From: Candidatus Daviesbacteria bacterium
GTDB lineage: Bacteria > Patescibacteriota > Microgenomatia > Daviesbacterales > UBA10151
Assembly: GCA_016176405.1 (NCBI GenBank)
Contig: JACOXG010000004.1
Location: 9,082-73,081 of the forward strand
Direction: 5' to 3'
DNA: 64,000 nt
Every line of letters starts with the position of its first letter. Within the stretch, counting starts at the first letter, position 1. Of this stretch, positions 4,855 through 64,000 are shown in pieces. The notes under the pieces are model-generated. The model made no database searches. It was given only the letters and a program-made list of their open reading frames with translations, and had not been told where the DNA came from. A program made the position numbers and the translations under genes.

Positions 4855-5459
4855 TGATGAGTGATGGATTCAAAAAACGAATGAGTCAGAATTCAAGATT
4901 GCTAATACTATTTAGTGTTTTAATAATTCTAGTGGGATCTGGCCTTTTGTGGTCTGGGTTAAAGCTACCTGCCATCCCAATTCAACAAGCTTCTCCAACT
5001 CCCCTGGTGGAGACTGTACCAATTGCCACTAAATCAGCAAGCATTGATGTGGAGGGCGAGAGAGCATTTGTGAAGAGGGTGATTGATGGGGACACCATTG
5101 AACTAGATAACGGTTCAACAGTTAGACTGCTTGGTATAGATACACCTGAAACTGTTGATCCCAGAAAACCGGTTCAGTGTTTTGGCAAAGAAGCCTCCAA
5201 TAAACTCAAAAGCTTGGTCTTAAATCAGGTGGTCATTTTGCAAAAAGATGTTTCCGAAACTGATAAATATCAAAGATTATTAAGATATGTTTTGCTGCCT
5301 TTGGATAACGATCGGCTCCTCTTTATCAATGATTATTTAATCAGAGAGGGCTTTGCCAAAGTTTTAACTATTCCTCCTGATGTCAAATATACGGAACAAT
5401 TTCTAGAGGCTCAAAGGGAAGCCAGGGAAAATAAAAAGGGTCTTTGGGGAAGATGCTGA
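4854..5459 (+). CDS. Thermonuclease (staphylococcal nuclease, SNase) family secreted nuclease
   Basis: SNase motifs VIDGDTIEL, RLLGIDTPET, KYQRLLRYV; N-terminal TM/signal. Confidence 0.8.
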   Translation: MMSDGFKKRMSQNSRLLILFSVLIILVGSGLLWSGLKLPAIPIQQASPTPLVETVPIATKSASIDVEGERAFVKRVIDGDTIELDNGSTVRLLGIDTPETVDPRKPVQCFGKEASNKLKSLVLNQVVILQKDVSETDKYQRLLRYVLLPLDNDRLLFINDYLIREGFAKVLTIPPDVKYTEQFLEAQREARENKKGLWGRC

Positions 5460-5500
5460 CCCCTTGTAGTACTCCTTCTGCCTGTGATACGTTAATTTAG

Positions 5501-6001: not shown

Positions 6002-7515
6002 ATGGTTGAAGTTCTGCCCATTAGAATTTTAAGAGAAGAAGATGGACCTATTTTTGGAAAAGAGGGTGTGGCTCTGGGGAAACTTGACAGAGCCGGTATA
6101 CCGGTAGCATCAGGATTGGTGATAACTGCTCCCCATCTTAAGCTGAGAGTTATTTTAGAGCATCATGATTTTGGATCCAAAGAAGTTTTTGAGCAGTCCC
6201 TAACCTTAGTTAAAAAAGAAATAGAAAAAATTCCCATTCCTGAAGTTTTAGAGCGGGAAGTTGGTCAACACACTCACTTTTGGCTGGCAGATTCTCAAAT
6301 TAAATCAGTTAAAAAACTTTGGTTAAGTTTACTGTTTATTTGGATAGAAGAAATTAAAAATAGACTCTGGCAGGACGGATTTTACCAGGGGATCACGGAT
6401 GGATTGGAATCACAAACGGTGATTTTTGTTAAAAAAATAGAGGGATGGATTGGAATCACAAACGGTGATTTTTGTTAAAAAAATAGAGGCCTGGGGAAAT
6501 GCCTATTTTGATCCCATTCAAGATGAGGTGGTAGTTCATATAAAGCAGGATAAACTTCATCCAAATGATTTGGAAAAGTTGCAAGAAATGGTCAGGCTGG
6601 CCAATAAGAAACTATTTATTCCGCACCAATATGATTGGATTTTAGATAAAGGATTAAAGATCGTTGGAATAAAACCGTTCACACCACCCTTTACTTCACA
6701 TCTATCTGATTTGGTAATTCCTGGCATGTCTACTTATCCCATACAAATAACCCCACTTCATGGGAACGGCATGGGTAAAGAGGCAAAAAGAAGTGTGGTT
6801 AAGGTTTTTTTGGATTTATCAGATGGACTAATCATTGAAAGGGAGGCTGATGGAGTCTATATTGCCGCGGAGAAAATTTTTGATTTAAACAAACCCCGAG
6901 ATTCTTTCGAAGATTTGGTTTTCAGAGTAGTTGAGGCGGCTGTAACTTTTCCCAATAGTCAGATACTTTTTAAATTGGCAGATATGTCAGAAGGAATGGG
7001 AAAGGTAAGAGGTACCTTAAGACTGTTGCATCAAAAAAGTTTATTGGAGCCGCTGATTTGTCAGAGGAGTAGGGGAACTCGTAAAAATCAAACAAGAGTT
7101 ATCTATTAAGAAATTAAAACGCCAAGCCTCTTTACAGTTTTGGTTGGAAATAGCTGTGCCGGAAAATATTATTAATTTGGAGGATTATTTAATGGTGGGA
7201 ATAGATGGAGTAGTTTTAAATTTGGATGAGTTGATTGCTCATTTTAACGGTTTTGACCAAACGCAAGAAGACTTGGTATTTTACAAAAATGAGGTTTCCG
7301 GATTGCTTAAATTTTTAGAAGATAGCATAAAACTGCTTAATAAATCCAAAATTCCTTTTATAGCCTATGGATCTTTAAGCCAATACCAAAAAGTTTTGGA
7401 ATTTTTGGTGGAAAAAGGAGTATATGGAGTGGTGGTGGAAAGATATGAAGTCCCTTCAGCCAAAGATTTGTTGTACCAGACAGAAAAAAGGATGATTTTA
7501 AGAAAATCCTCCTAA
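6002..7515 (+). pseudogene. PEP-utilizing enzyme-like gene (PEP synthase/PPDK-type N-terminal PEP/pyruvate-binding domain + C-terminal TIM-barrel-like domain) broken into three ORFs (6002-6478, 6450-7109, 7144-7515)
   Basis: N-terminal GKEGVALGKL...GIPVASGLVIT resembles the ATP-grasp nucleotide-binding region of PEP synthase; first break coincides with a 46-bp tandem duplication (not a multiple of 3); second frame change near 7050-7060. Confidence 0.45.
6398..6489. repeat. Perfect 46-bp tandem duplication (gatggattggaatcacaaacggtgatttttgttaaaaaaatagagg x2) inside the PEP-utilizing-like gene
   Basis: Two identical adjacent copies read directly; creates the frame break between ORFs 6002-6478 and 6450-7109. 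Confidence 0.9.
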
Positions 7516-20575: not shown

Positions 20576-20594
20576 TATTAAACTACGTTCCCAC

Positions 20595-20656
20595 ATCTCA
20601 AGTGGGAAGCTAGATTGTAAATTCCATCTCAAGTGGGAAGCTAGATTGTAAATTCC
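20595..20656. repeat. 31-bp perfect tandem direct repeat x2 (atctcaagtgggaagctagattgtaaattcc)
   Basis: Two adjacent identical copies with no spacer; overlaps the stop codon of the minus-strand ORF 20641-21297. Confidence 0.9.
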
Positions 20657-21297
20657 GCTAAGAATTCCTCTATTTGTGCTTGAGAGATACCAAGAAGCCT
20701 CAGATCTTTTAGGTCTTTTGGTCTGGGAGGTGCAATGTGTAGAGGTGTACTATGTAAATCAACTGATTTACTAAATGTTAATGCTAGAGCATCAAGAATA
20801 TAGACTGGTCTTCCATTAAATTGTACTGGGGTTGAATGACTAAAAAGAATCCTAATATTAGGTTCACTACCAGGAATTCTACGTGATTCGAGCCAGCGTT
20901 TTGCGCTTTTGGAAGGGGTTCCTGCAAATTTTTTCTCTGTCTCACTATCTTCGCTTCGAAGTACTAAATCTACATCCTCTGGAATTTGTCTTGTAGGTAT
21001 TAATAAATGTACCGCTACCCCACCTTCTATAAGGTATTGTAATTGTCCATTTTCAACTTGTGGAAAAATAGAAATTAAAAGATCTAGAATTTTATCCCAG
21101 GAGGGTTGAGGATTTTCCCTATATAATGCTTCCAATGAAGGATGCCTTGGATAGACTATTATTGGTGGGAGTTCTTTCATAAGTTGAATTATACAATAAT
21201 TCATGCATTTTCTTCGGGTCTTCTTAGTGGTAAAATGGAATTTTGTCCCAACGTCATTCCTGCGAATGCTCGCTTCGCGAAGCGAGCAGGAATCCAA
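20641..21297 (-). CDS. Hypothetical protein, possible nucleotidyltransferase-fold (GG...DVDLV); annotated N-terminus is probably repeat-derived
   Basis: IEGGVAVHLL...EDVDLVL motif; first 30 codons are the reverse-strand translation of palindromic element B, so the real start is probably MNYCII (about 21204). Confidence 0.4.
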   Translation of the reverse strand: MDSCSLREASIRRNDVGTKFHFTTKKTRRKCMNYCIIQLMKELPPIIVYPRHPSLEALYRENPQPSWDKILDLLISIFPQVENGQLQYLIEGGVAVHLLIPTRQIPEDVDLVLRSEDSETEKKFAGTPSKSAKRWLESRRIPGSEPNIRILFSHSTPVQFNGRPVYILDALALTFSKSVDLHSTPLHIAPPRPKDLKDLRLLGISQAQIEEFLAEFTI

Positions 21298-21345
21298 TTA
21301 ATAAAATCACGTTCAGAATTGGATCCCCGCCTACGCGGGGATGAC
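21253..21345. repeat. Palindromic element family B (two hairpins: cattcctgc..gcaggaatg and atccccgc-cta-gcggggat) with an extra nested palindrome (gctcgcttcgcgaagcgagc), 18 bp upstream of the uvrB start
   Basis: Near-identical copy in dinB (63114-63188) and a shorter inverted copy in tkt (46931-46987); translated on the plus strand it gives VIPAN...AGIQ...ELDPRLRGDD, a motif widespread in other bacteria. Confidence 0.8.
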
Positions 21346-21362: not shown

Positions 21363-23375
21363 ATGGCAAAGTTTATGATAGTTTCTGACTTTAAACCTAC
21401 TGGGGATCAGCCACAGGCTATTGAGAAGCTGGTGAGTGGATTAAATAATAATGAGAAACATCAAGTTTTGCTTGGTGTGACAGGTTCTGGAAAAACTTTT
21501 ACCATGGCCAATGTGATCCAAAAAGTCCAAAGGCCTACCTTAGTTATTTCTCATAACAAAACTCTTGCAGGGCAGCTGGCTCAAGAATTCAGGTCCCTTT
21601 TTCCCAACAATGCCGTGGAATATTTCGTTTCATACTATGATTATTACCAGCCCGAGGCTTATGTGCCTCAATCAGATACTTATATAGAAAAAGAGACAGA
21701 AATTAATGAGGAAATTGAAAAATTAAGGCTTTCCACTACTACTTCTTTGATGACCCGAAAAGATGTGATTGTGGTGGCCTCAGTATCCTGTATCTATAAC
21801 TTAGGTTCTCCTGTTGAATATGGCGGAGCTATTTTGGAGCTTAAAGAAGGGGTAAGATCTGGATTCCAATCCATTTTGAAGATGTTACAGAAAATGTATT
21901 ACTTGCGGAATGATTTAGATTTTAGAAGATCTACTTATAGAGTTAGAGGTGATACATTGGATATTTATCCTTCATACGCAGATTCTGCTGTTAGAGTAGA
22001 GTTTTTGGGGGACAAGATTGAAAGAGTATCTCATCTTGATCCTTTAACTGGAACAGTTACACCTACTTCCCAAACTTTGACTATTTTTCCTGCCAAACAC
22101 TACATTACTTCTGAGGCCAGATTTGAAGGAGCTTTAAAACAGATTCAGGAAGATTTGGTGGCCAGATTAAAACAGCTTAGGAAACAGGGAAAACTGTTGG
22201 AAGCTCAAAGATTAGAGCAAAGAACTTATTATGATCTGGAAATGATCAAAGAGTTTGGATATTGTAATGGAATTGAGAATTATTCCAGGTATTTTGATGG
22301 AAGAGCTCCAGGTGAGTCACCTTTTACTTTAATGGAATATTTTCCTAAGGATTTTTTACTAATTATTGATGAATCACACATTACTCTTCCTCAAATTAGG
22401 GGTATGTATAATGGTGACAGATCCAGAAAAGAAACCTTGGTTGAGTTTGGATTTAGGCTTCCCTCAGCTTTAGATAATAGACCGCTAAAATACGAGGAAT
22501 TTCAAAGGAAAATAAATCAAGCTATCTATGTTTCAGCCACTCCTGATGAGTATGAATTGAGTTTGGCTGGGGCTCACCTCCGAGGTGAGGGCAAGGTGAC
22601 ATCTGGCACACACCTCGGAGGTGTGGTGGAACAACTGGTCAGGCCAACAGGGATCGTAGATCCACAAATTTCTGTTAGAGGAACCAAAGGACAAATTGAT
22701 GATGTGATCAAAGAGGTAGAAAAACGCGTGGAACGTGGAGAGCGAGTCTTGATCACTACACTTACCAAAAGAATGGCAGAGGATCTGACTGACTATTTGA
22801 AAGAGAAAGGAATTAAGGTGAACTATTTACATTCAGATATTGAGACATTAAAAAGGTCTGATATTTTACAATCTTTAAGATTAGGGGAATTTGATGTGAT
22901 TGTGGGAATTAATCTTTTAAGAGAAGGTTTAGATTTACCAGAAGTAACTTTAGTCATAATCTTAGATGCTGATAAAGAAGGATTTTTAAGATCAAAAACC
23001 TCACTTATACAAACCATGGGCAGAGCTGCTAGAAATATTGGAGGAGAGGTAATTATGTATGCAGATAATGTGACAAAGTCTATGAAAGCTGCTATAGAGG
23101 AGGTGGATAGAAGAAGACAATACCAGGAGGAATATAATAAAAAACATAAAATAAAACCTAGAAGTATTGAGAAAGCTTTAAGGGAAAGGTTAATTGAGCA
23201 AGTTGAAGAGTTAGAAGAGCAATTGGGTAAAAAAGAGTTAAGAGTGGAGGATATTCCACCAAAAGAAAGAGATAAAATGTTAAGAAATTTAGAAACTCAA
23301 ATGAAACAAGCAGCAGAACTTTTGGATTTTGAGGAAGCAGCAAGACTTAGGGATCAAATTAAGGAGCTAAGTTAG
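21363..23375 (+). CDS. uvrB: Excinuclease ABC subunit B (UvrB), carrying an in-frame 18-aa insertion from a palindromic repeat
   Basis: Walker A GVTGSGKTFT, helicase motifs, beta-hairpin region, C-terminal UvrBC coiled-coil domain (EEAARLRDQIKEL); insertion [18 protein letters not shown] between YELSLAG and VEQLVRPTG. Confidence 0.95.
   Translation: MAKFMIVSDFKPTGDQPQAIEKLVSGLNNNEKHQVLLGVTGSGKTFTMANVIQKVQRPTLVISHNKTLAGQLAQEFRSLFPNNAVEYFVSYYDYYQPEAYVPQSDTYIEKETEINEEIEKLRLSTTTSLMTRKDVIVVASVSCIYNLGSPVEYGGAILELKEGVRSGFQSILKMLQKMYYLRNDLDFRRSTYRVRGDTLDIYPSYADSAVRVEFLGDKIERVSHLDPLTGTVTPTSQTLTIFPAKHYITSEARFEGALKQIQEDLVARLKQLRKQGKLLEAQRLEQRTYYDLEMIKEFGYCNGIENYSRYFDGRAPGESPFTLMEYFPKDFLLIIDESHITLPQIRGMYNGDRSRKETLVEFGFRLPSALDNRPLKYEEFQRKINQAIYVSATPDEYELSLAGAHLRGEGKVTSGTHLGGVVEQLVRPTGIVDPQISVRGTKGQIDDVIKEVEKRVERGERVLITTLTKRMAEDLTDYLKEKGIKVNYLHSDIETLKRSDILQSLRLGEFDVIVGINLLREGLDLPEVTLVIILDADKEGFLRSKTSLIQTMGRAARNIGGEVIMYADNVTKSMKAAIEEVDRRRQYQEEYNKKHKIKPRSIEKALRERLIEQVEELEEQLGKKELRVEDIPPKERDKMLRNLETQMKQAAELLDFEEAARLRDQIKELS
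22575..22623. repeat. REPIN-like element family A (cacctcCgaggtg - 23 bp - cacctcGgaggtg) inserted in-frame in uvrB
   Basis: Two 13-bp palindromes in inverted orientation; same arms at 25176-25224 (uvrA), 63728-63777 (dinB) and related palindromes flanking the HuH transposase gene at 48785-48809/49524-49543. Confidence 0.85.
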
Positions 23376-23688: not shown

Positions 23689-23825
23689 ATAAAGTAATCT
23701 TATACCCCTTTAAAAATCTTGTCAAATACCTCATAATATGGTCTTTAAAGATTCAAGGGCTTCCAAAATCTTGCAAAAGAGATTATAATATCCCAGTCAT
23801 TTTTCGGGAATTTTTCGTATGCCTA

Positions 23826-25532
23826 TTGACAAAATTATTATCAAAGGTGCTCGTGAGCACAATCTTGGCTTTTGATACCCTATATGCTGAGGGGCAGAGA
23901 AGATATGTTGAATCCCTTTCTGCTTATGCCAGGCAGTTTTTGGGGGTCATGGATAAGCCTGATGTAGATTTAATTGAAGGATTATCTCCTGCTATTTCTA
24001 TTGATCAAAAAGGAGTTTCACACAATCCCAGATCTACTGTTGGAACAACTACTGAAATTTATGATTACTTAAGGCTACTTTTTGCCAGAATTGGCCATCC
24101 TCATTGTCCTATTTGTGGCAGGGAAATTAGTAGGATGAGTGTGGAACAGATTGTGGAAATAGTCATCAGTAGTCAGTCATCAGCTATCAGCAAGAAGGGG
24201 AGAAGAATCATGGTTTTGGCTCCTGTTGTTAAAGATAGAAAAGGGGAGTACTCCTCGCTTTTTGAAGATTTAAGAAAGAAAGGTTTTTCTAAAGCCAGAG
24301 TTGATGGGCAGATTAGGGATTTGAGTGAGGATTTTGTATTGATTAAAACTAATAAGCACACTATTGATGTCGTAGTTGATCGGCTCGTGTTAGAGTCTAG
24401 AGTCAAGAATCTAGAATCTAGTGAGACACAATATAGACTCTCGACTCTAGCGACTAGACTCTCACAAAGTATTGAAACAGCAGTTAAATTAGGTGAAGGA
24501 TCTGTAATAGTTTCTGATGTTTTAGATGCTTCTTTAGAATTTCCCCAGAGCCCTAAAAAAATGGAAGATCACCTATACTCTGAAAGATTTGCCTGTCCTG
24601 TTGACAATATAGCTCTATCTGAGGTTGAGCCCAGATTATTTTCTTTTAATTCCCCCCACGGAGCTTGTCCAACATGCTCCGGATTAGGTTCTCTTTTAGA
24701 GATTGATCCGGAAATGGTCTTAAACCCAATTTTATCCATTGCTGAGGGTGGAATTTTACCCTGGCAAAAATTAGCCACTCATGAAACCTGGTTTTCCAGG
24801 CTAATTGAGGCAGTGGGTAAGGAATATGGCTTTGACTTAAACACCAGATTAGGACAGCTTTCAGATGAGGCTAAAAAAGTGCTTCTACATGGTTCAGGAG
24901 ACGATGAATTCAGAGTGGAAGGTAGAAATAGACAAGGCAGATGGACCTCATTTTATTCTGAATTTCAAGGCTTAGTTCCATATTTAAAGCAAAGATACCA
25001 AGAATCTGAATCAGATTATGTCAGAGCAGAAATTGAAAAATATATGTATAAAGAAACATGTCCCAAATGTAAAGGGGCTAGGCTTAAAGATGAGGCTTTA
25101 TCAATCACCATTGATGGTTTAAATATTGCTGAGGTGACCACCCAATCTATCAACGAAGCTTTAGATTGGATTGCTCACCTCCGAGGTGAGGGCAAGGTGA
25201 TGTCTGGATCACACCTCGGAGGTGTACTCTCGGAACGAGAATGGCAAATTGCCACCTCAATTGTCAAAGAAATTAAAGCTAGATCACAGTTTTTGATTGA
25301 TGTAGGTTTAGATTATTTAACTTTAGATAGACCCTCTATGACTTTGGCAGGAGGGGAGTCACAAAGGATCAGATTGGCCTCTCAAATTGGTTCAGGGTTA
25401 TCTGGAGTTTTATATGTTTTAGATGAACCCTCAATTGGTTTACATCAAAGGGATAATGCCAGGTTGATTGATACTTTAAAGAGACTGCGGGATTTGGGAC
25501 GGAGGGAAAATTGTCGATACTGGAACCCCTGA
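23826..25532 (+). CDS. uvrA: Excinuclease ABC subunit A (UvrA), N-terminal/central segment; gene appears disrupted
   Basis: [26 protein letters not shown], zinc-finger Cys pairs, ABC signature [12 protein letters not shown]; a separate upstream start [16 protein letters not shown] (23819) is in another frame and the NBD-I Walker A segment is absent; contains three repeat-derived in-frame insertions. Confidence 0.85.
24391..24463. repeat. Palindromic element family C (tagagtctagagtc...agactctcgactctagcgactagactct) inserted in-frame in uvrA
   Basis: Related copy at 52335-52401 (intergenic in the MacAB-like operon); encodes [24 protein letters not shown]. Confidence 0.7.
25176..25224. repeat. 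REPIN-like element family A inserted in-frame in uvrA (encodes [18 protein letters not shown])
   Basis: Same 13-bp inverted palindromic arms as the uvrB copy; spacer differs at a few positions. Confidence 0.85.
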
Positions 25533-25590
25533 CCAAATTAAAAAGAGCCCAGCCTCTTTAACAGGTCAATATTTATCCGGAAAAAAGCAG

Positions 25591-26622
25591 GTGAGAGTTA
25601 ATGGAGAACTGAGAAGACAATATGTGAACATGGGACATTTAAAAATTAAGGGAGCCTCTCAGCATAATTTAAAAAATATCAATGTAGATTTTCCTTTGGG
25701 ACAATTTATAGCAATCACTGGAGTTTCAGGTTCAGGTAAATCAACTTTAATTCATGATATTTTATATAAAGCTTTAGCTCAGAAAGTTTATAAAACTAAG
25801 GAAAGACCAGGAGCTCATAAGGAATTGGAAGGTATGGAGTATGTGGACAAGGTGGTTTTAGTTGATCAATCACCAATTGGTCGGACTCCCCGCTCAAATC
25901 CAGCCACCTACACAGGCGCTTTTACTTTTATCAGAGATTTATTTGCCCAAAGTCCTGAGGCTAAAATCAGAGGTTATGGACCTGGCAGATTTTCTTTTAA
26001 TGTCAAAGGTGGCAGGTGTGAGGTTTGTGAGGGAGAAGGACAGCTCAAAATTGAGATGCAGTTTTTACCGGATGTGTATGTGACTTGTGAGGCATGTAAT
26101 GGTAAAAGATATAACAGAGAAGCTTTGGATATTCATTTTAAAGAAAAAAATATCTCAGATGTTTTAGAAATGACTGTGGAGGAAGGGTTAAAGTTTTTTG
26201 AAAATATTCCTAATTTAAAAAATAAATTACAGGTGTTAAATGATGTGGGGTTAGGTTATATAGGGTTAGGTCAGCCAGCCCCAACCTTGAGTGGTGGTGA
26301 AGCCCAAAGAATAAAACTCTCTTCAGAGCTGTCCAAAAGACCAACAGGACACACAGTTTATATTTTGGATGAGCCCACCACTGGTTTACATTTTGCGGAT
26401 ATAGAAAGGCTTTTGACCATTCTAAGAAGACTGGTTAATTTTGGGAATACGGTCATAATTATTGAGCATAATTTAGATGTGATTAAAAATACCGATTGGG
26501 TCATAGACTTAGGCCCAGAAGGTGGGGATAAAGGAGGGCAAATTATAGCAGAAGGCACTCCCCAAAATATAGCCAAAATCAAATCTTCATATACCGGTCA
26601 ATATTTGGCAAAAATACTCTAA
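25591..26622 (+). CDS. uvrA: UvrA C-terminal segment (NBD-II); frame extends upstream to about 25495
   Basis: Walker [12 protein letters not shown], zinc finger [17 protein letters not shown], signature [12 protein letters not shown], Walker [13 protein letters not shown]-loop IIIEHN; separated from the upstream segment by a frame change plus loss of about 29 aa (NBD-I Walker B/H-loop). Confidence 0.85.
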
Positions 26623-44618: not shown

Positions 44619-46070
44619 CTAAATTCTACAAAATTCCATGGATGGTTCTAACCATTTTCTTCCATCAGCCTCAATTAACTGATCAGCTTCTTTTGGTCCC
44701 CAAGAACCAACTTTATAAATTATGGGTTTACCCCGAACTTTAGAAAGGGGATCAGTAAAGGCCCACTGGGCTTCAACTTCTTGGGCATCATTAAAAAAGG
44801 TCTGATCTCCTCTGATGGTATCAACCAGTAACCTTTCATATGGATCAGGTACAAAATGTGTATGAGGATCAATTCTATAGCAATACTGCATATACTCTGG
44901 TTGTAGTTTTACCCCATGGCCAGGCAGTTTAGTTAAGATTTTTAAAACTACTCCCTCGTTTGGCTGAATTCTGTAAACCAAAATATTGGGTTCATCCCCG
45001 CTTTTTAGGTTTTTGAATAACCTGTTGACCGGATTTTTGAAGACAAGGGAAATTTCCGTGACATACTGTTTTAGTTTTTTTCCAGCTCTGATATAAATGG
45101 GAACATCTTTGAATCTGTCATTTTTGATAAAAGTTTTTAGGGCATAATAGGTATCGGTGGTAGAGTTGGAATCAACATTTGGCTCTTTGTTATAACCTTC
45201 ATATTGACCAAATACCACTTTATTAGGCATTGGGACTAAACTTTTTAGAATTTTAATCCTTTCTTTGGTAACAGCCTCATTAGTAAAGCGCGATGGAGCA
45301 TCCATGGTGGCAAAGGCCAGCATCTGTAGCTGATGATTTTGTCCCACATCTTTCAATGATCCAACCTGGTCATAATACCCACCCCTTCTGCCAATGCCAA
45401 AATCCTCAGTGGCTGTGATTTGAATATGGTCAACAAAATCTTTATTAACTAAAGGCTCAAAAATATCATTGGCAAATCTAAAAGTTAAAATGTTTTGCAA
45501 GGTCTCTTTACCTAAATAATGATCTAATCGATAAATTTGATCCTCTGTAAAATATTTCAGTAAGAGTTGATTTAAGGCTTTGGCCGAAGGTAAATCTGAG
45601 CCAATTGGTTTTTCAATCATCAGCCTGACCCAACCGCTGTTTTGCAAATTTAATTTATACTTTTGTAGATTTTCAAAAATATAATGATATAAATCTGGAT
45701 ATGTAGCCAGATAGTAGATTCTATTGTCATGTTTTAAATAATTCTGTAACTTTTTATATAATGCCGGATCTTGAATTTCACCACTTAAGTATTTAAGTCT
45801 TTTGCAAAGTTTACTGAAGATATCTTCTTTGATTTCATGTTGATGATGAACATTTTCTAAATGTAGAACCTTATGTACGTATTCTTTCAGAGTTTGATCA
45901 GACATTTCCCTTCTGGCGATGCCTAAAATAGTCATATCGGCAGGTAGAAGATTTTTTTCTTCCATATCATAGAGAGCGGGGATAAGTTTGATCTGAGCCA
46001 AATTGCTGGTGATACCAAAAATTACCAAGGCGAAAGATTCCATGGGAATAGAATATATCATATGATACAA
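44619..46070 (-). CDS. zwf: Glucose-6-phosphate 1-dehydrogenase
   Basis: NAD(P) fold GxxGDLA-like N-terminus; G6PD signature RLDHYLGKE. Confidence 0.9.
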   Translation of the reverse strand: MYHMIYSIPMESFALVIFGITSNLAQIKLIPALYDMEEKNLLPADMTILGIARREMSDQTLKEYVHKVLHLENVHHQHEIKEDIFSKLCKRLKYLSGEIQDPALYKKLQNYLKHDNRIYYLATYPDLYHYIFENLQKYKLNLQNSGWVRLMIEKPIGSDLPSAKALNQLLLKYFTEDQIYRLDHYLGKETLQNILTFRFANDIFEPLVNKDFVDHIQITATEDFGIGRRGGYYDQVGSLKDVGQNHQLQMLAFATMDAPSRFTNEAVTKERIKILKSLVPMPNKVVFGQYEGYNKEPNVDSNSTTDTYYALKTFIKNDRFKDVPIYIRAGKKLKQYVTEISLVFKNPVNRLFKNLKSGDEPNILVYRIQPNEGVVLKILTKLPGHGVKLQPEYMQYCYRIDPHTHFVPDPYERLLVDTIRGDQTFFNDAQEVEAQWAFTDPLSKVRGKPIIYKVGSWGPKEADQLIEADGRKWLEPSMEFCRI

Positions 46071-47567
46071 TTTCGGACAATGAATAATCTAAGAGAGCTA
46101 GCTAAGCTAGTTAGGTACTTTATCTTAATTTCCACCACTGAGGCAGGGTCTGGGCATCCTACCTCATCTCTATCCGCCACCGACTTGATGGTGGCTCTTT
46201 TTTTTGGAGGATTTCTTCATTTTGATTTGAAAAATATAGATAATGCCAATAATGATCGTTTAATTTTCTCTAAAGGTCACGCCTCCCCTCTTTTCTACTC
46301 AATTTATGGGGCAGCCGGTGCAGTTTCTGAAAAGGAGCTTCTGACTCTGAGAAAGTTTGACAGTCCATTAGAGGGGCATCCTTCCACGGAGTTTCCCTTT
46401 ACCGAGGTTCCCACAGGATCTTTGGGTCAAGGTTTATCTGTTGGAGTTGGTATGGCTATTAATGCTAAATATCTGGATAAATTGGGATATAAAACTTTTG
46501 TACTATTGGGTGATTCTGAGATGGCAGAAGGATCTGTTTGGGAGGCAATTCAGCTGGCAGCATTTTACAAATTGGACAATTTGGTGGCAATTTTGGATGT
46601 GAACAGATTGGGACAAAGAGGGCAGACTATGTATGGACATGATGTTAAAGCATATCAGCAAAGAGTTTCCAGTTTTAGTTGGAAAACTATTGTAATTGAT
46701 GGACATAATTTGGCTCAGATTAAAAGGGCGTATCAGCGAGCCTTAAAGACTAAAAATGTCCCTACTATGATTATTGCTAAAACTATTAAAGGTAAAGGAT
46801 TTTCAATTTGGGAGGATAAAGATGGTTGGCATGGGAAGGCACTTCCTAAGGAGGATTTGGAAAGGGCTTTGAAGGAATTGGGTTATATAAATAAGAAACT
46901 TCGTGGAAAACTCAGCTTACCCACAAAGTCATCCCCGCTTTCGCGGGGATCCATAAATAATTGGATTCCTGCCTCCGCAGGAATGACAAACTATTCCCAA
47001 GGTGACATGGTGGCAACAAGAAAGGCCTATGGTAATGCTTTAGTAAGGCTTGCTCCCAAATATCCTGATATGGTGGTATTAGATGCCGAGGTGAATAACT
47101 CTACTTATTCAGAATTTTTTGCCCAAAAATTTCCCCAAAAATATTTTGAGATGTTTATTGCTGAACAAAATATGGTGGGAGTGGCTTTGGGACTTTCAAG
47201 GCGGGGCAAAATGCCTTTTATCTCCACCTTCGCCGCCTTTTTAACTAGAGCTTTCGATCAAATCAGAATGGCTCAGTATGCCAAAACTAATATTAAGTTT
47301 TGTGGTTCTCATGCAGGAGTTTCCATAGGGGAAGATGGGCCCTCTCAGATGGGATTAGAAGACATTGCCATGTTTAGGACAATTATGGGTAGTGTGGTGT
47401 TGTATCCTTCTGATGCTGTCTCTTGCGAAAAATTGGTGGAAGAGGCTGCAAAGCATTATGGCATGGTTTATATTAGAACCACCAGAAAAGATACACCTGT
47501 TATTTATTCTAATAATGAGCAATTCAAAGTGATCATGACCAGGTTACTATTTTGGGAGCAGGGATAA
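46062..47567 (+). CDS. tkt: Transketolase (N-terminal TPP-binding + pyrimidine-binding domains), with an in-frame repeat insertion and a 3' frameshift
   Basis: TPP motifs GSGHPTSSLS, GDSEMAEGSVWEA; 19-aa insertion SSPLSRGSINNWIPASAGM from palindromic element B; frame changes around 47527-47545 into ORF 47552-47896. Confidence 0.85.
   Translation: MIQFRTMNNLRELAKLVRYFILISTTEAGSGHPTSSLSATDLMVALFFGGFLHFDLKNIDNANNDRLIFSKGHASPLFYSIYGAAGAVSEKELLTLRKFDSPLEGHPSTEFPFTEVPTGSLGQGLSVGVGMAINAKYLDKLGYKTFVLLGDSEMAEGSVWEAIQLAAFYKLDNLVAILDVNRLGQRGQTMYGHDVKAYQQRVSSFSWKTIVIDGHNLAQIKRAYQRALKTKNVPTMIIAKTIKGKGFSIWEDKDGWHGKALPKEDLERALKELGYINKKLRGKLSLPTKSSPLSRGSINNWIPASAGMTNYSQGDMVATRKAYGNALVRLAPKYPDMVVLDAEVNNSTYSEFFAQKFPQKYFEMFIAEQNMVGVALGLSRRGKMPFISTFAAFLTRAFDQIRMAQYAKTNIKFCGSHAGVSIGEDGPSQMGLEDIAMFRTIMGSVVLYPSDAVSCEKLVEEAAKHYGMVYIRTTRKDTPVIYSNNEQFKVIMTRLLFWEQG
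46931..46987. repeat. Palindromic element family B (short form, inverted orientation) inserted in-frame in tkt
   Basis: atccccgc-tttc-gcggggat hairpin plus cattcctgc-ctcc-gcaggaatg hairpin; 57 bp = 19 codons. Confidence 0.8.
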
Positions 47568-47896
47568 CTCTTCATGAGGCTCTAGCTGCTTATGAGGAGC
47601 TAAAGAAGAGTAATATATTTGTTCGAGTAATTGATTTATACAGTATTAAGCCTTTAGATACTGATACCCTGAAAAAAGTTGCGAGAGAAACAAAAGCTAT
47701 TATTACTGTAGAAGATCATCATTTAGAAGGTGGGATGGGGGAGGCAGTGGCCACAGCATTGGCTGGTGTAAATATACCTGTTATCAATTTGGCTGTTACC
47801 AAGGTCCCCAAGAGCGGTAAGCCTGCTGAACTTTTAGACTATGAGGAAATTTCAGCAGGTGCTATTATTGATAATGTTAAAAAGATCATTAAATGA
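47552..47896 (+). CDS. tkt: Transketolase C-terminal domain segment (continuation of tkt after frameshift)
   Basis: Transketolase_C-like motifs (VTILGAGITL...KPLD); in the +1 frame relative to the upstream segment. Confidence 0.75.
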   Translation: MGAGITLHEALAAYEELKKSNIFVRVIDLYSIKPLDTDTLKKVARETKAIITVEDHHLEGGMGEAVATALAGVNIPVINLAVTKVPKSGKPAELLDYEEISAGAIIDNVKKIIK

Positions 47897-48756: not shown

Positions 48757-48784
48757 GGATTTTTAAATAAGTATTAGTTGCTAT

Positions 48785-48809
48785 CATTCCTACCTCGGAG
48801 GTAGGAATG
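48785..48809. repeat. REP-like perfect palindrome (cattcctacctc-g-gaggtaggaatg) 3' of tal and flanking the HuH transposase gene
   Basis: 25-bp palindrome whose core acctcNgaggt matches family A arms; followed by a T-run, so it may also terminate tal. Confidence 0.8.
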
Positions 48810-48840
48810 AATGTGCACGTAGGGTTTTATCCAGTATTTT

Positions 48841-49518
48841 TTATTCAAGAAGCTTATGTTTAATTAATTCAAGCTTTCTAGCATAATCTACTTGATCTAG
48901 TACAAATTGTTCATATCTTTTGGAATTTTTAAATAATGAGATAACAACTTCCTTATTGCAAATTTTATCTTCTTGTAATTCAAGATAGGATACATATGAT
49001 GACCAAGGATAGTCTCTTAAGTTTTTAACTAAATAGGAAGCAATTGGGTTTAGGTGTATATATCGTGATAAATGTATCAATTGTTCATCTGATTCCACTC
49101 TGACAGCCTTAAATTGTCCTTGGAAGAGTGGCCCAACGCGCTCATGACGTGTATTAAAGTACTTAGTATAGCTGTTAGAAACCTTATTAATGAATTCAGA
49201 GATTCCCTTTTCTTCGAGCTGCCGCAACATAAAGTGATAATGGTTAGGCATTAGGCAATAGCAAATTATTTCCACAATTCTTTTGTTCTTCTCATACTCA
49301 AAATCCTTAAAACGATTTAACTGAGAAAATTGAGGTTTGGGTCCCTGGAATTGGTAATAGTAGATCGTCTCTAAGAATCGATTGTAATCTCTTCGATCAT
49401 CAAATACCGGCATCTTTGCCACTCCACGATTAAAAACATGGTAGACTTGGCCAGTGGCCAATGGAATTATTCGATAGGGCATAAATTCTACTAAACCACA
49501 TATTACCCAAGGTGTCAA
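48841..49518 (-). mobile_element. IS200/IS605-type HuH tyrosine transposase, probable REP-associated tyrosine transposase (RAYT)
   Basis: HuH motif LMPNHYHFM, catalytic Tyr region LSRYIHLNPIASYLV (compare E. coli RAYT YIYINPVKHGWV); flanked on both sides by REP-like palindromes of the same family dispersed in the window. Confidence 0.75.
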
Positions 49519-49523
49519 TACAT

Positions 49524-49543
49524 TTCCACCTCGGAGGTAGGAG
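49524..49543. repeat. REP-like palindrome (ttccacctc-g-gaggtaggag) immediately 5' of the HuH transposase gene
   Basis: Matches the left-flank palindrome and family A arms. Confidence 0.8.
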
Positions 49544-62398: not shown

Positions 62399-63113
62399 CA
62401 ACTCTCAGAACCTATTAAAGTTTGGGTATTTTTTGAAAATGGAACTTTAAAGCCTCATTTATTTTTCTGGAATAAAAGACAAATTAAAATAGAAAAAATT
62501 AATTTAGTTCATACCACTAAAAATGGCTCTTCTCCTGCTTATCATTTTTCAGTTTCCTCTAGAGGGAATTTTTACAGACTAGGATTTGATTTATTCACTT
62601 TAAAATGGTTTCTGGAGGCTGTGGAAGAGGGATAGCTGGTTGCTCCTGGGAGCTATGGGTTGATTCTGAAGAAGCAATTTCTCCAGGAAGTGGTCCGTGA
62701 AATATAGAACTACCAAGGGGACACGGCCTCCAAGAGACATCATTAGGTGCGTGGGTTTGGGGTAATTCCTTCTCTACCATGACACGTACAAATTAAAATA
62801 ACTGTTAAATTATGTCAAGAGGGATTTATGAGAACCATTTTACACATTGATTTTAACTCATACTTTGCCTCTGTTGAACAGCAGGCAAATCCACACCTTC
62901 GGGGTAAACCTATTGGGGTAACTGGAGGAGATAGACTAAAGAGGACAGTGATTGGGGCAGCCTCAATTGAGGCCAAAAAGTTTGGGGTAAAAACCAGGAG
63001 ATTCTGATAAGTATTTAGAAACAACCAAGAAATTTATAAATATTTTAAAGGACTTTAGCCCAAATTTGGAGGTGTTCTCTATAGATGAGTGCTTTTTGGA
63101 ATTACCCTTTTCT

Positions 63114-63188
63114 GTCATTCCTGCGAATGCAGGAATCCAATTAAATGAATCACGTTCGGAATTGGATCCCCGCCTACGCGGGGATGAC
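63114..63188. repeat. Palindromic element family B inserted in-frame in dinB (encodes VIPANAGIQLNESRSELDPRLRGDD)
   Basis: Near-identical to the 21253-21345 copy minus its nested palindrome. Confidence 0.85.
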
Positions 63189-63727
63189 TTGGTAAAAGTT
63201 GCCCAAGATATTAAATCTCGTATCCGCTCTGAAATTGGAGAATGGATCAGATGCTCTATAGGTATTTCATATAACAAGCTCATGGCCAAGTTGGCTGGGT
63301 CTTTACAAAAACCGGATGGACTGGTGGTTATTCCAAACCAGAAAGAGGCTATCAAAGTGTTGGATAAGATAGAATTGGATGAAATTTGTGGGATCGGCGG
63401 AAGGATTAAAAAAAGATTAAATAATATGGGAGTGTTCGGTTTTAAACAGCTAAGATATGTACCTCTAGAGGCTCTGCTGGCCTCATTTAAGAGCTATGGA
63501 CAGATTTTATATAACATGGCTCGGGGAATAGATTATTCACCCATCATTCCCTTTTATGAAAAAGGAGAAGTAAAAAGTGTGGGGCATAGACATACCATTG
63601 ATCACGATACAAATGACCCAGCAGAAATAAAGCAAATTCTTTTAAAACTTACAGAACTGGTGGCCAGAAGACTGCGGGCTAAAAAAATGGTAGGGAAAAC
63701 TGTCCATTGTTGGTATCGTCAGGCATT

Positions 63728-63777
63728 CCACCTCCGAGGTGAACCCAGTATTTCAACTAGTGCACACCTCGGAGGTG
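63728..63777. repeat. REPIN-like element family A inserted in-frame in dinB (encodes HLRGEPSISTSAHLGGV)
   Basis: ccacctcCgaggtg - 23 bp - cacctcGgaggtg. Confidence 0.85.
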
Positions 63778-64000
63778 TATTTTCGGGAGATGGGATGCAG
63801 ATGACTATCTCTTACAGCAATGATGGATTGGCAATCTTCCATGCAGCCTGGAAAATTTTCCAGAAACTGTGGAATGAAGACAAGATTAGAATGGTTGGTG
63901 TATCCATATCTAACCTCAAATCCCAAAATCCTCAGAATCTATCATTACTTGAAGATTTTTTAACTCAGGAAAAAATTATTCAAACCATGGATAAAATTAA

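Follow-up and report, generated by a model that had tools for sequence, protein, structure and literature searches.

Does a lone HUH transposase gene, bracketed by short palindromes, form one system with the similar palindromes that lie inside genes elsewhere on the same contig? This question is raised by a 64-kb stretch of DNA (the window, analysed over its whole length) from a low-GC contig of a Candidatus Daviesbacteria bacterium, a member of the Microgenomates within the candidate phyla radiation (CPR). The window holds one gene for a Y1-type HUH tyrosine transposase-like protein, and the core of its flanking palindromes recurs in pairs of inverted copies, which we call doublets. An initial annotation had read this arrangement as a REP-associated tyrosine transposase (RAYT) accompanied by repetitive extragenic palindromes (REPs) and their hairpin-forming doublets (REPINs). 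The best explanation of our results, to which we assign a probability of roughly three in four, is indeed a RAYT-type system, in which the single-copy Y1 HUH gene is paired with cognate palindromic repeats, namely 43-nt terminal inverted repeats (TIRs) around the gene and 49-nt doublets. The tips of the TIRs would correspond to a short GC-rich palindrome, YACCTC-S-GAGGTR, and inverted pairs of this palindrome 23 nt apart would constitute the dispersed, REPIN-like elements.

The transposase and its relatives

The initial annotation had described a 225-aa minus-strand open reading frame (ORF) containing the motifs NHYHFM and RYIHLNP. This ORF is present (48841-49518, minus strand, with a TTG start at 49518). 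The true start is probably the ATG at 49482, which gives a protein of 213 aa. This start is favoured because the identical NCBI protein, P0002, which like the identical P0121 is recorded for this organism on a 75.6-kb contig, is called from it and all orthologues begin there; the upstream TTG falls within a conserved TATTGACA box. In the 213-aa protein, the HUH motif is N80-H81-Y82-H83, the catalytic tyrosine is Y141 within RYIHLNP, and an SS motif occupies positions 161-162. Across 45 homologues, no variation is seen in either the HUH or the Y---NP motif, including N80, H81, H83, and Y141.

In profile searches the protein matched the Pfam family Y1_Tnp (PF01797) with 35.5 bits, above the gathering score of 23 (E=1.2e-8), while its score against the NCBIfam RAYT model remained below the cut-off, a point to which we return below. 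The best sequence match in the Protein Data Bank was E. coli TnpA_REP (4ER8), a weak match (E=0.031) in which the HUH and Y---NP motifs are aligned. AlphaFold2 models were built from the 45 homologues; the best model reached a pLDDT of 90.9, and the other four of the five were poor, which calls for caution. A Foldseek search with the best model returned 4ER8, the structure of TnpA_REP bound to a REP hairpin, as the top match (E=4.4e-8, TM 0.68). The next fold matches were the IS200/IS605 transposases of ISDra2 and IS608 (E of about 1e-4), weaker by about four orders of magnitude. The suggested resemblance to the E. coli YafM type is thus borne out by sequence, fold, and the Y---NP motif.

The C-terminal 55 residues of the protein are helical in the model, and no Bac_DnaA_C, HTH_23, or HTH_28 domain was matched by Pfam in the transposase at E<=1. 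A tblastn search detected one Y1 gene in the window, in agreement with the single copy that had been proposed. No tnpB gene adjoins it in the ORF list or in the neighbour annotation of the window.

Palindromes and inverted repeats flanking the gene

A REP-like palindrome is present at each end of the gene, as the initial annotation had noticed, and the two share the core YACCTCSGAGGTR (Table 1). The 3'-flank palindrome is located between the convergent tal and transposase genes and folds as DNA with -11.7 kcal/mol (z -5.1), while the 5'-flank palindrome alone folds weakly (z -1.2). The latter is a hybrid of two stem types, TACCTC and CACCTC.

Both in the window and at orthologous loci, the conserved TATTGACA box is located in the inner part of the TIR, some 40 nt before the start codon. 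It could serve as a -35 element or belong to the end of the element; a promoter role is conjectural, and the consensus promoter scan did not call a promoter at the box. The motif GGGGWSAS is missing from the TIRs read in the window and at the orthologous loci, and the positions flanking the palindromes hold no conserved tetranucleotide.

Table 1. Coordinates of the transposase gene, its flanking repeats, and the dispersed doublets in the window
Feature	Position	Strand	Details
Y1 HUH tyrosine transposase-like gene (RAYT/TIRYT class)	48841..49482	minus	213 aa; Pfam, NCBIfam, and 4ER8 matches; alignment of 45 homologues
3'-flank REP-like palindrome TCATTCCTACCTC-G-GAGGTAGGAATGA	48784..48810		Perfect; 13-nt arms and one central base
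5'-flank REP-like palindrome TCCACCTC-G-GAGGTAGGA	49524..49543		Imperfect (TCCACCTCGGAGGTAGGA); read from the sequence
Terminal inverted repeat, 3' arm	48788..48830		43 nt; 74% complementarity with 49500-49542; REP palindrome at the outer tip
Terminal inverted repeat, 5' arm	49500..49542		Holds the conserved TATTGACA box; TTGACA at 49513-49518, minus strand
REPIN-like doublet CACCTCCGAGGTG-23 nt-CACCTCGGAGGTG	22575..22623	+	In frame in uvrB; 16-18-aa insert
REPIN-like doublet	25176..25224	+	In frame in uvrA; 16-18-aa insert
REPIN-like doublet	63729..63777	+	In frame in a dinB-type (IMS family) polymerase gene; encodes HLRGEPSISTSAHLGG

The palindrome changes with the gene across homologues

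At the orthologous loci L004, L005, L006, and L008 (63-74% identity), the same palindrome, CCTACCTCSGAGGTAGG, is found on both sides of the gene and at the same distances. In L004, L006, and L008 it forms the outer tip of TIRs of 39-45 nt that are 76-78% complementary.

Other homologues carry palindromes of their own. On L007, two related genes are separated by 6 kb and share about 54-61% identity with the window protein, and each is bracketed by its own palindrome, TCCACCCTTGGGGTGGA and CAAACCSGGTTTG. The homologue on L137 has AAGGAGWCTCCTT on both flanks, and that on L239 has TCCCAC..GTGGGA upstream, with no matching copy seen downstream; both of these palindromes occur in further copies on their contigs, including in-frame copies within the gene itself. 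A homologue from a metagenome-assembled genome (MAG) of the Thermoflexia (Chloroflexota), L102, is only 34% identical, and both of its flanks are doublets with the same ACCTCSGAGGT core, of which its locus contains 14 in 8 kb. To judge from these sequences, the conserved flanks, the shift of the palindrome with the homologue, and the recurrence across phyla correspond to the described behaviour of RAYT/REP pairs and argue against chance accumulation.

The self-inserted palindromes of L102 and L137 are located between or after the catalytic motifs. In L102, a REP doublet lies in frame in the transposase's own coding sequence (5438-5468, TSEVSETSEV), between the HUH and tyrosine motifs, and in L137 the gene's own flanking palindrome lies in frame inside the RAYT homologue around 8498 and 8812 (KESPL).

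The palindrome core is enriched in the window and forms intragenic doublets

The sequence ACCTCNGAGGT occurs eight times in the window, where shuffles predict 0.05 occurrences and none of 100 shuffles reached eight. The eight sites comprise the two gene flanks and six copies in three doublets, confirming the annotation's statement that the gene ends share their core with the three doublets it had called family A. With up to two mismatches allowed, 13 sites were found against 1.25 expected, and the five additions are weak.

Each doublet consists of two inverted copies of CACCTCSGAGGTG, the first with a central C and the second with a central G, separated by 23 nt. All three lie within long ORFs and are in the identical reading frame. 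The longer form of the insert peptide in the dinB-type polymerase is FHLRGEPSISTSAHLGGV, and the uvrA and uvrB doublets are 92% identical over 53 nt. As single-stranded DNA, each doublet forms a single hairpin of 13 bp that encloses a 23-nt loop (z -4.3 to -5.6 relative to shuffles). A derivation of the doublets from the TIRs by simple internal deletion was considered and rejected; TGACAYCT follows the palindrome by 9 nt in both, but the overall similarity is too weak.

The palindrome arms CACCTCC and GGAGGTG equal the Shine-Dalgarno (SD) consensus and its complement, the latter being identical to the anti-SD tail of 16S rRNA. Host transcripts would therefore carry an internal SD-like site that could be sequestered in the 13-bp hairpin, and this likeness may be coincidental. 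The known structured RNAs found with Rfam in the window are five tRNAs only.

Doublets as insertions in tolerant loops

Relative to solved UvrB, the uvrB doublet is an insertion between YEL(E) and (G)VVEQ. At the doublet, uvrB is 42 nt longer in the window than in L249 and L250, the closest insert-free orthologues, and uvrA is likewise 42 nt longer than in L249. Among 120 UvrB orthologues from Daviesbacteria, most of 654-658 aa, dozens have different or degenerate inserts at the same loop, including HLPGE...HLGG, HLRGGVAPAAHLGG, and one resembling an unrelated palindrome family described below as family B (VIPANAGIQ...MDSRLRGND, P0123). This variety at a single loop, with its degenerate forms, indicates a permissive site that was struck repeatedly or anciently.

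The doublet in the dinB-type gene occupies the identical site in the orthologue on L222. A higher conservation of the arms than of the spacer at this site is uninformative, since L222 was retrieved by requiring exact arms. Directly downstream of the shared doublet, L222 has an additional 36-nt insert with the palindrome CTCACCCCAGGGGTGAG, and the family-B site of that gene is occupied by a different repeat-derived insert. Different lineages thus gather different palindromes in the same permissive loops.

Doublets in other genomes and metagenomes

We scanned one genome per species for the pattern ACCTCSGAGGT-N15-40-ACCTCSGAGGT and found at least 120 loci, compared with about 4-7 expected by chance (rough arithmetic assuming uniform composition). 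The matches listed come from Chloroflexota, Desulfobacterota, Ignavibacteria, Acidobacteriota, cyanobacteria, Thiotrichaceae, and several CPR groups; among them, the CACCTC...GGTG form with spacers of about 23 nt is mostly from CPR. A metagenome scan for the CACCTC form also gave at least 120 loci, with 112 unique copies, nearly all on low-GC groundwater or sediment contigs. In the copies listed, the inverted C..G arrangement is present in 96 of 112, and the length is 46, 49, or 52 nt in 91 of 112 (about 81%), corresponding to frame-preserving steps of three.

For 76 of the listed copies the flanking sequence was long enough to judge their setting; 84% of these fall within ORFs of 100 aa or more, compared with 87% of random positions on the same contigs, indicating no avoidance of coding DNA. 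The reading frames in the listed copies are HLRG...HLGG in 36, TSEV...TSEV in 25, and PPRC in 3. The use of two frames shows that what these elements share is DNA and not a peptide. One spacer subfamily occurs in both orientations, and the flanks outside the doublets show no conservation apart from a near-absence of G at position -1, again among the matches listed. The idea that the elements are designed to be free of stop codons in all frames was rejected, as 3.57 of six frames are open compared with 3.44 with random spacers, a result that fits elements inserted at random and then filtered for frame and stop codons, without any special design.

The hosts among the listed copies are conserved housekeeping proteins, including Pol IV (4), SecA (3), PurL (3), the CCA-adding enzyme (3), UvrD, DnaX, TsaD, ATP synthase subunits, GAPDH, RF-1, and others. 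In the window, all three hosts (uvrB, uvrA, and dinB) are repair genes, for which we calculate a chance probability of about 8e-4, post hoc. An enrichment of DNA-repair genes was not established, with at least 9 of 76 listed hosts in replication or repair compared with at least 3 of 58 control ORFs (Fisher p = 0.23).

One doublet host, a UvrD/PcrA helicase gene on L155 (9292-12321), also contains an intein (Intein_splicing domain), so that a single gene has been invaded by two kinds of selfish insert. Three MAGs labelled 'uncultured Gammaproteobacteria' (L065, L127, and L044) have CPR-type CACCTC doublets on contigs of 39-41% GC, and these taxonomic labels may be wrong.

Genomic neighbourhood and other features of the window

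The transposase gene has zwf, tkt, and tal on one side, with tal convergent to it, and a bacterial PGI/SIS gene on the other, in line with the position within pentose-phosphate genes given at the outset. Upstream of it, a 110-aa ORF encodes a small Cys-rich protein. This pentose-phosphate neighbourhood is common to the three closest orthologous lineages (about 73% aa identity) and is not shared by L007 or L008. The Y1 gene, present once in the window, may have been inherited vertically.

A second family of palindromic doublets, family B (GTCATTCCTGC..GCAGGAATCCA and GGATCCCCGC..GCGGGGATGAC), is present at 21286-21345, 46923-46988, and 63113-63193. Its copies lie in frame in tkt and dinB, with one beside the upstream region of uvrB, and encode peptides of the VIPANAGIQ...DPRLRGDD / WIPASAGMT type. 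No cognate Y1 gene for family B was seen within the window. The dinB-type gene thus holds two different in-frame palindromic inserts, one of family B (63113-63193) and one of family A.

Several reading frames in the window are interrupted. Relative to the intact L249 and L250, the uvrA region (23819-26622) lacks two internal stretches of 77 nt and 86 nt, and both deletions are out of frame. The first removes the N-terminal Walker A region, and the gene is split into ORFs 23826-25532 and 25591-26622; it is either a pseudogene or an assembly error, and the adjoining uvrB is intact. The dinB-type polymerase gene (62828-64000) has a 53-nt out-of-frame deletion near 62995 relative to L222 and is split after about 56 codons. 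Transketolase is encoded by two overlapping ORFs, one for the N-terminal and pyrimidine-binding domains (46062-47567) and one for the C-terminal domain (47552-47896), which suggests a frameshift or a genuinely split gene. Perfect tandem duplications occur at 6397-6488 (2 x 46 nt) and 20594-20655 (2 x 31 nt).

Proposed mechanism

By analogy with E. coli TnpA_REP and the TnpA proteins of IS608 and ISDra2, we infer a mechanism in which this protein is catalytically active and mobilizes the doublets, and in which the inserts are translated. The palindrome, or the entire doublet, would fold into a hairpin on single-stranded DNA, for example at a replication fork, and the enzyme would bind the folded hairpin. 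With a divalent metal held by the HUH histidines H81 and H83, Tyr141 would cleave beside the hairpin and form a 5'-phosphotyrosine link. The excised or copied strand would then be rejoined at a new single-stranded site without target duplication. In a gene-dense CPR lineage, such elements would land in coding DNA about as often as chance predicts, and the survivors would be those that keep the frame and bring no stop codon. Read-through would then add some 16-18 aa (HLRG...HLGG or TSEV...TSEV) to housekeeping proteins, at loops that tolerate insertion.

Weighing the explanations

Several observations weigh against a RAYT-type system. The score of the protein against NCBIfam REP_Tyr_transpos (NF047646), 62.3 bits (E=4e-17), is below the equivalog cut-off of 80, and its motifs are those of subclass 2.1, a group without REPs according to Quentin et al. 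(PMC6006769). The outer stem pair is T:A in the flanks (TACCTC...GAGGTA) and C:G in the doublets (CACCTC...GAGGTG), so that the flanks and the doublets differ as families. The foot of the hairpin lacks the canonical 5' GT[AG]G guide tetranucleotide, with GTAG/GTGG found inside the 3' half of the stem. Only three doublets are visible in 64 kb, and the net gain at the empty uvrB and uvrA sites is +42 nt, not a clean insertion of 49-54 nt.

In one alternative, the doublets spread or persist by another route, be it another enzyme, recombination, or survival as ancient relics, the gene flanks are just one more place where such palindromes have gathered, and the protein has a different host function on single-stranded DNA. 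Such a scenario would accommodate the one-base-pair difference between the stems and the reported lack of REPs in subclass 2.1, and it gains from the tendency of palindromic repeats to cluster and from family B, which is unrelated and yet also in frame in window genes with no cognate enzyme in view. The doublet in dinB, being common to the orthologue, is old and has not moved recently. We nevertheless consider this scenario unlikely, because the palindromes occupy equivalent positions on both sides of the gene, within a conserved TIR, down to 61% identity, and distant homologues come with different palindromes, in three cases on both flanks. The 34%-identical Chloroflexota homologue has the same core, and the overall pattern would be hard to obtain by chance accumulation.

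It is very improbable that the gene is an ordinary autonomous insertion sequence (IS) of the IS200/IS605 family, or another TIR-bounded IS, that settled among pentose-phosphate genes and left the palindromes as solo ends or derived miniature inverted-repeat elements. The Y1_Tnp domain, the IS-like 43-nt TIRs, and the two related genes 6 kb apart in L007 would suit such an element, but those two genes, with their different palindromes and about 54-61% identity to the window protein, appear to be old paralogues rather than recent copies. The tyrosine motif is Y---NP and not Y---Q, a TnpB partner is missing, the gene occurs once in the window, the fold is nearer to TnpA_REP than to the IS608 and ISDra2 transposases, and the three closest lineages retain the pentose-phosphate neighbourhood. 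A standard IS200 TnpA with TnpB, which the initial annotation had named as a finding that would refute its reading, is thus not what the locus encodes. We give equally little credence to the palindromes being RNA or DNA signals (terminators, mRNA-stability hairpins, or SD/anti-SD-like GGAGGTG/CACCTCC pairing) or selected peptide modules. The 3' palindrome does lie between the convergent tal and transposase genes, and the core does equal the SD-like GGAGGTG and its complement, but the hairpins are not followed by a T-run and were not called in the terminator scan. Moreover, the doublets are located mid-ORF in unrelated proteins, where two frames yield unrelated peptides; the degenerate remnants at the UvrB loop look like decay without selection; and apart from the frame in use, the spacers show no excess of open frames (3.57 vs 3.44).

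The RAYT/REPIN reading of the initial annotation is therefore supported, by a flank arrangement that is conserved, a palindrome that changes with the homologue, its strong enrichment in the window, and a recurrence in many related genomes. It is qualified by the intragenic location of the doublets, by the RAYT score below the cut-off together with the subclass 2.1 motifs, and by TIRs whose stem differs by one base pair from that of the dispersed copies.

Implications

Most of the REP/RAYT systems characterised so far come from Proteobacteria, and the systems are viewed as intergenic. In a CPR genome with almost no intergenic space, the repeats instead lie inside genes and are tolerated approximately as expected from random insertion with a frame and stop-codon filter. 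We tentatively propose, at somewhat less than even odds, that in CPR bacteria (Microgenomates) a mainly intragenic REPIN population is maintained by a RAYT-type enzyme from subclass 2.1, a group supposed to lack REPs, and that it yields frame-preserving inserts of about 16-18 aa in housekeeping proteins. The searchable literature, which covers the field incompletely, contained no description of REP/RAYT in CPR bacteria, no mention of the ACCTCSGAGGT core in such a context, no REP-like partner for a subclass-2.1-type enzyme, and no REPIN-like family present in coding DNA at the random-position rate.

The transposase itself is ordinary; what deserves attention is the intragenic, frame-preserving repeats in CPR bacteria and the link to a subclass reported to lack REPs. 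The palindrome is a candidate REP-like partner for TnpA_Y1 subclass 2.1/TIRYT. The literatures on REPIN/RAYT systems and on Rickettsia-type in-frame elements have so far been separate, and the window offers a possible link between them; the first named catalyst for in-frame palindromic elements would come from a system of this kind. If our proposal is correct, 'selfish DNA in protein-coding genes' of the type of the Rickettsia palindromic elements (RPEs) would have a candidate driver in a Y1 transposase, which would also be a source of lineage-specific protein insertions in CPR bacteria; the ACCTCSGAGGT core with its enzyme clade would then extend across CPR, Chloroflexota, and other phyla. 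CPR protein families are inflated and fragmented by inserts of this kind, which can also mislead homology-based annotation and alignment-based phylogeny. They also mark permissive loops in essential proteins such as UvrB, SecA, DnaX, and PurL.

Comparison with known systems

Class-2 (TnpA_REP) enzymes have the tyrosine motif Y---NP, and IS200 enzymes have Y---Q (PMC6006769). The window protein, with YIHLNP, belongs to class 2 and not to the Y---Q group. Its motifs NHYH, FQGQF, YIHLNP, and PWSSY fit the second variant of subclass 2.1 (NH[YF]H / FQ / Y[IV]HLNP / SS), a match made by eye against Table 1 of PMC6006769. Subclass 2.1 equals Bertels group 1 and largely the 'TIRYT' group of Di Nocera et al. 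2013, and it was reported to have no REPs (PMC6006769; PMC3733652).

With the TIRYT/TIRtron group, the window system shares the motif signature, the length range, and a gene bracketed by TIRs; some TIRYT TIRs are self-complementary and form small repeat families (PMC3733652). It differs in that no DnaA_C, HTH_23, or HTH_28 domain was detected in the protein and the TIRs lack GGGGWSAS. Moreover, the TIRs are tipped by a REP-like hairpin, dispersed copies of which form REPIN-like doublets, whereas the subclass is reported to be REP-less.

The likeness to E. coli TnpA_REP (RAYT, YafM; 4ER8) and its REPtron consists of the Y1 HUH fold, with the best structural and sequence match, the class-2 Y---NP motif, a gene found once in the window and flanked by a palindrome that recurs there, and the inverted doublets, which resemble REPINs or bacterial interspersed mosaic elements. 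In contrast, TnpA_REP has 165 aa, compared with 213 aa and about 60 extra C-terminal helical residues in the window protein, and a WE/WQ motif where the window protein has FQ. The window system also departs from it in its score below the NCBIfam cut-off, the absence of a 5' GTAG foot, its short palindrome (6-bp core), its 43-nt TIRs as flanks, and the intragenic location of the dispersed copies. It thereby departs from canonical RAYT/REP systems in the NCBIfam score, the missing GTAG foot, and a location that is not extragenic.

The REPINs of Pseudomonas fluorescens SBW25 and relatives are extragenic by definition and number hundreds per genome (PMC3116915). They resemble the window doublets in having two short inverted palindromes with a short spacer that form one long hairpin, in their association with the flanks of a RAYT gene, here found once in the window, and in persisting at orthologous sites, here dinB in L222. 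Unlike them, window-type doublets occur in coding DNA at the random-position rate, and all three copies in the window lie in ORFs. The TnpA proteins of the IS200/IS605 family (IS608, ISDra2) share the HUH/Tyr core and the recognition of hairpin ends on single-stranded DNA. They differ in their Y---Q motif, many near-identical copies, frequent TnpB, and left and right ends that differ from each other and are not inverted repeats.

Palindromes within genes have precedents. Intragenic GTAG/CGTC REPs are known from Opitutus, Thauera, and Xanthomonas, with hosts that include excinuclease, UvrD, and error-prone polymerase genes, and a bias of intragenic REPs towards repair genes was reported by Di Nocera et al. 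(PMC3733652). In-frame REPs inside the transposase gene itself have been described for subclass 2.4, and the self-inserted palindromes of L102 and L137 resemble them. The RPEs of Rickettsia are the classic in-frame palindromic inserts (PMC3733652). Like RPEs, the window doublets lie inside conserved genes with the frame intact and are missing from orthologues; like both RPEs and intragenic REPs, they are in frame in housekeeping genes of shared host types and would give short peptide inserts. RPEs differ in being longer and in having no linked cognate transposase here, whereas the core in the window brackets a Y1 gene and the lineage is CPR. Intragenic REPs and Rickettsia RPEs are thus already described, and the system in the window works like a REPtron or TIRtron.

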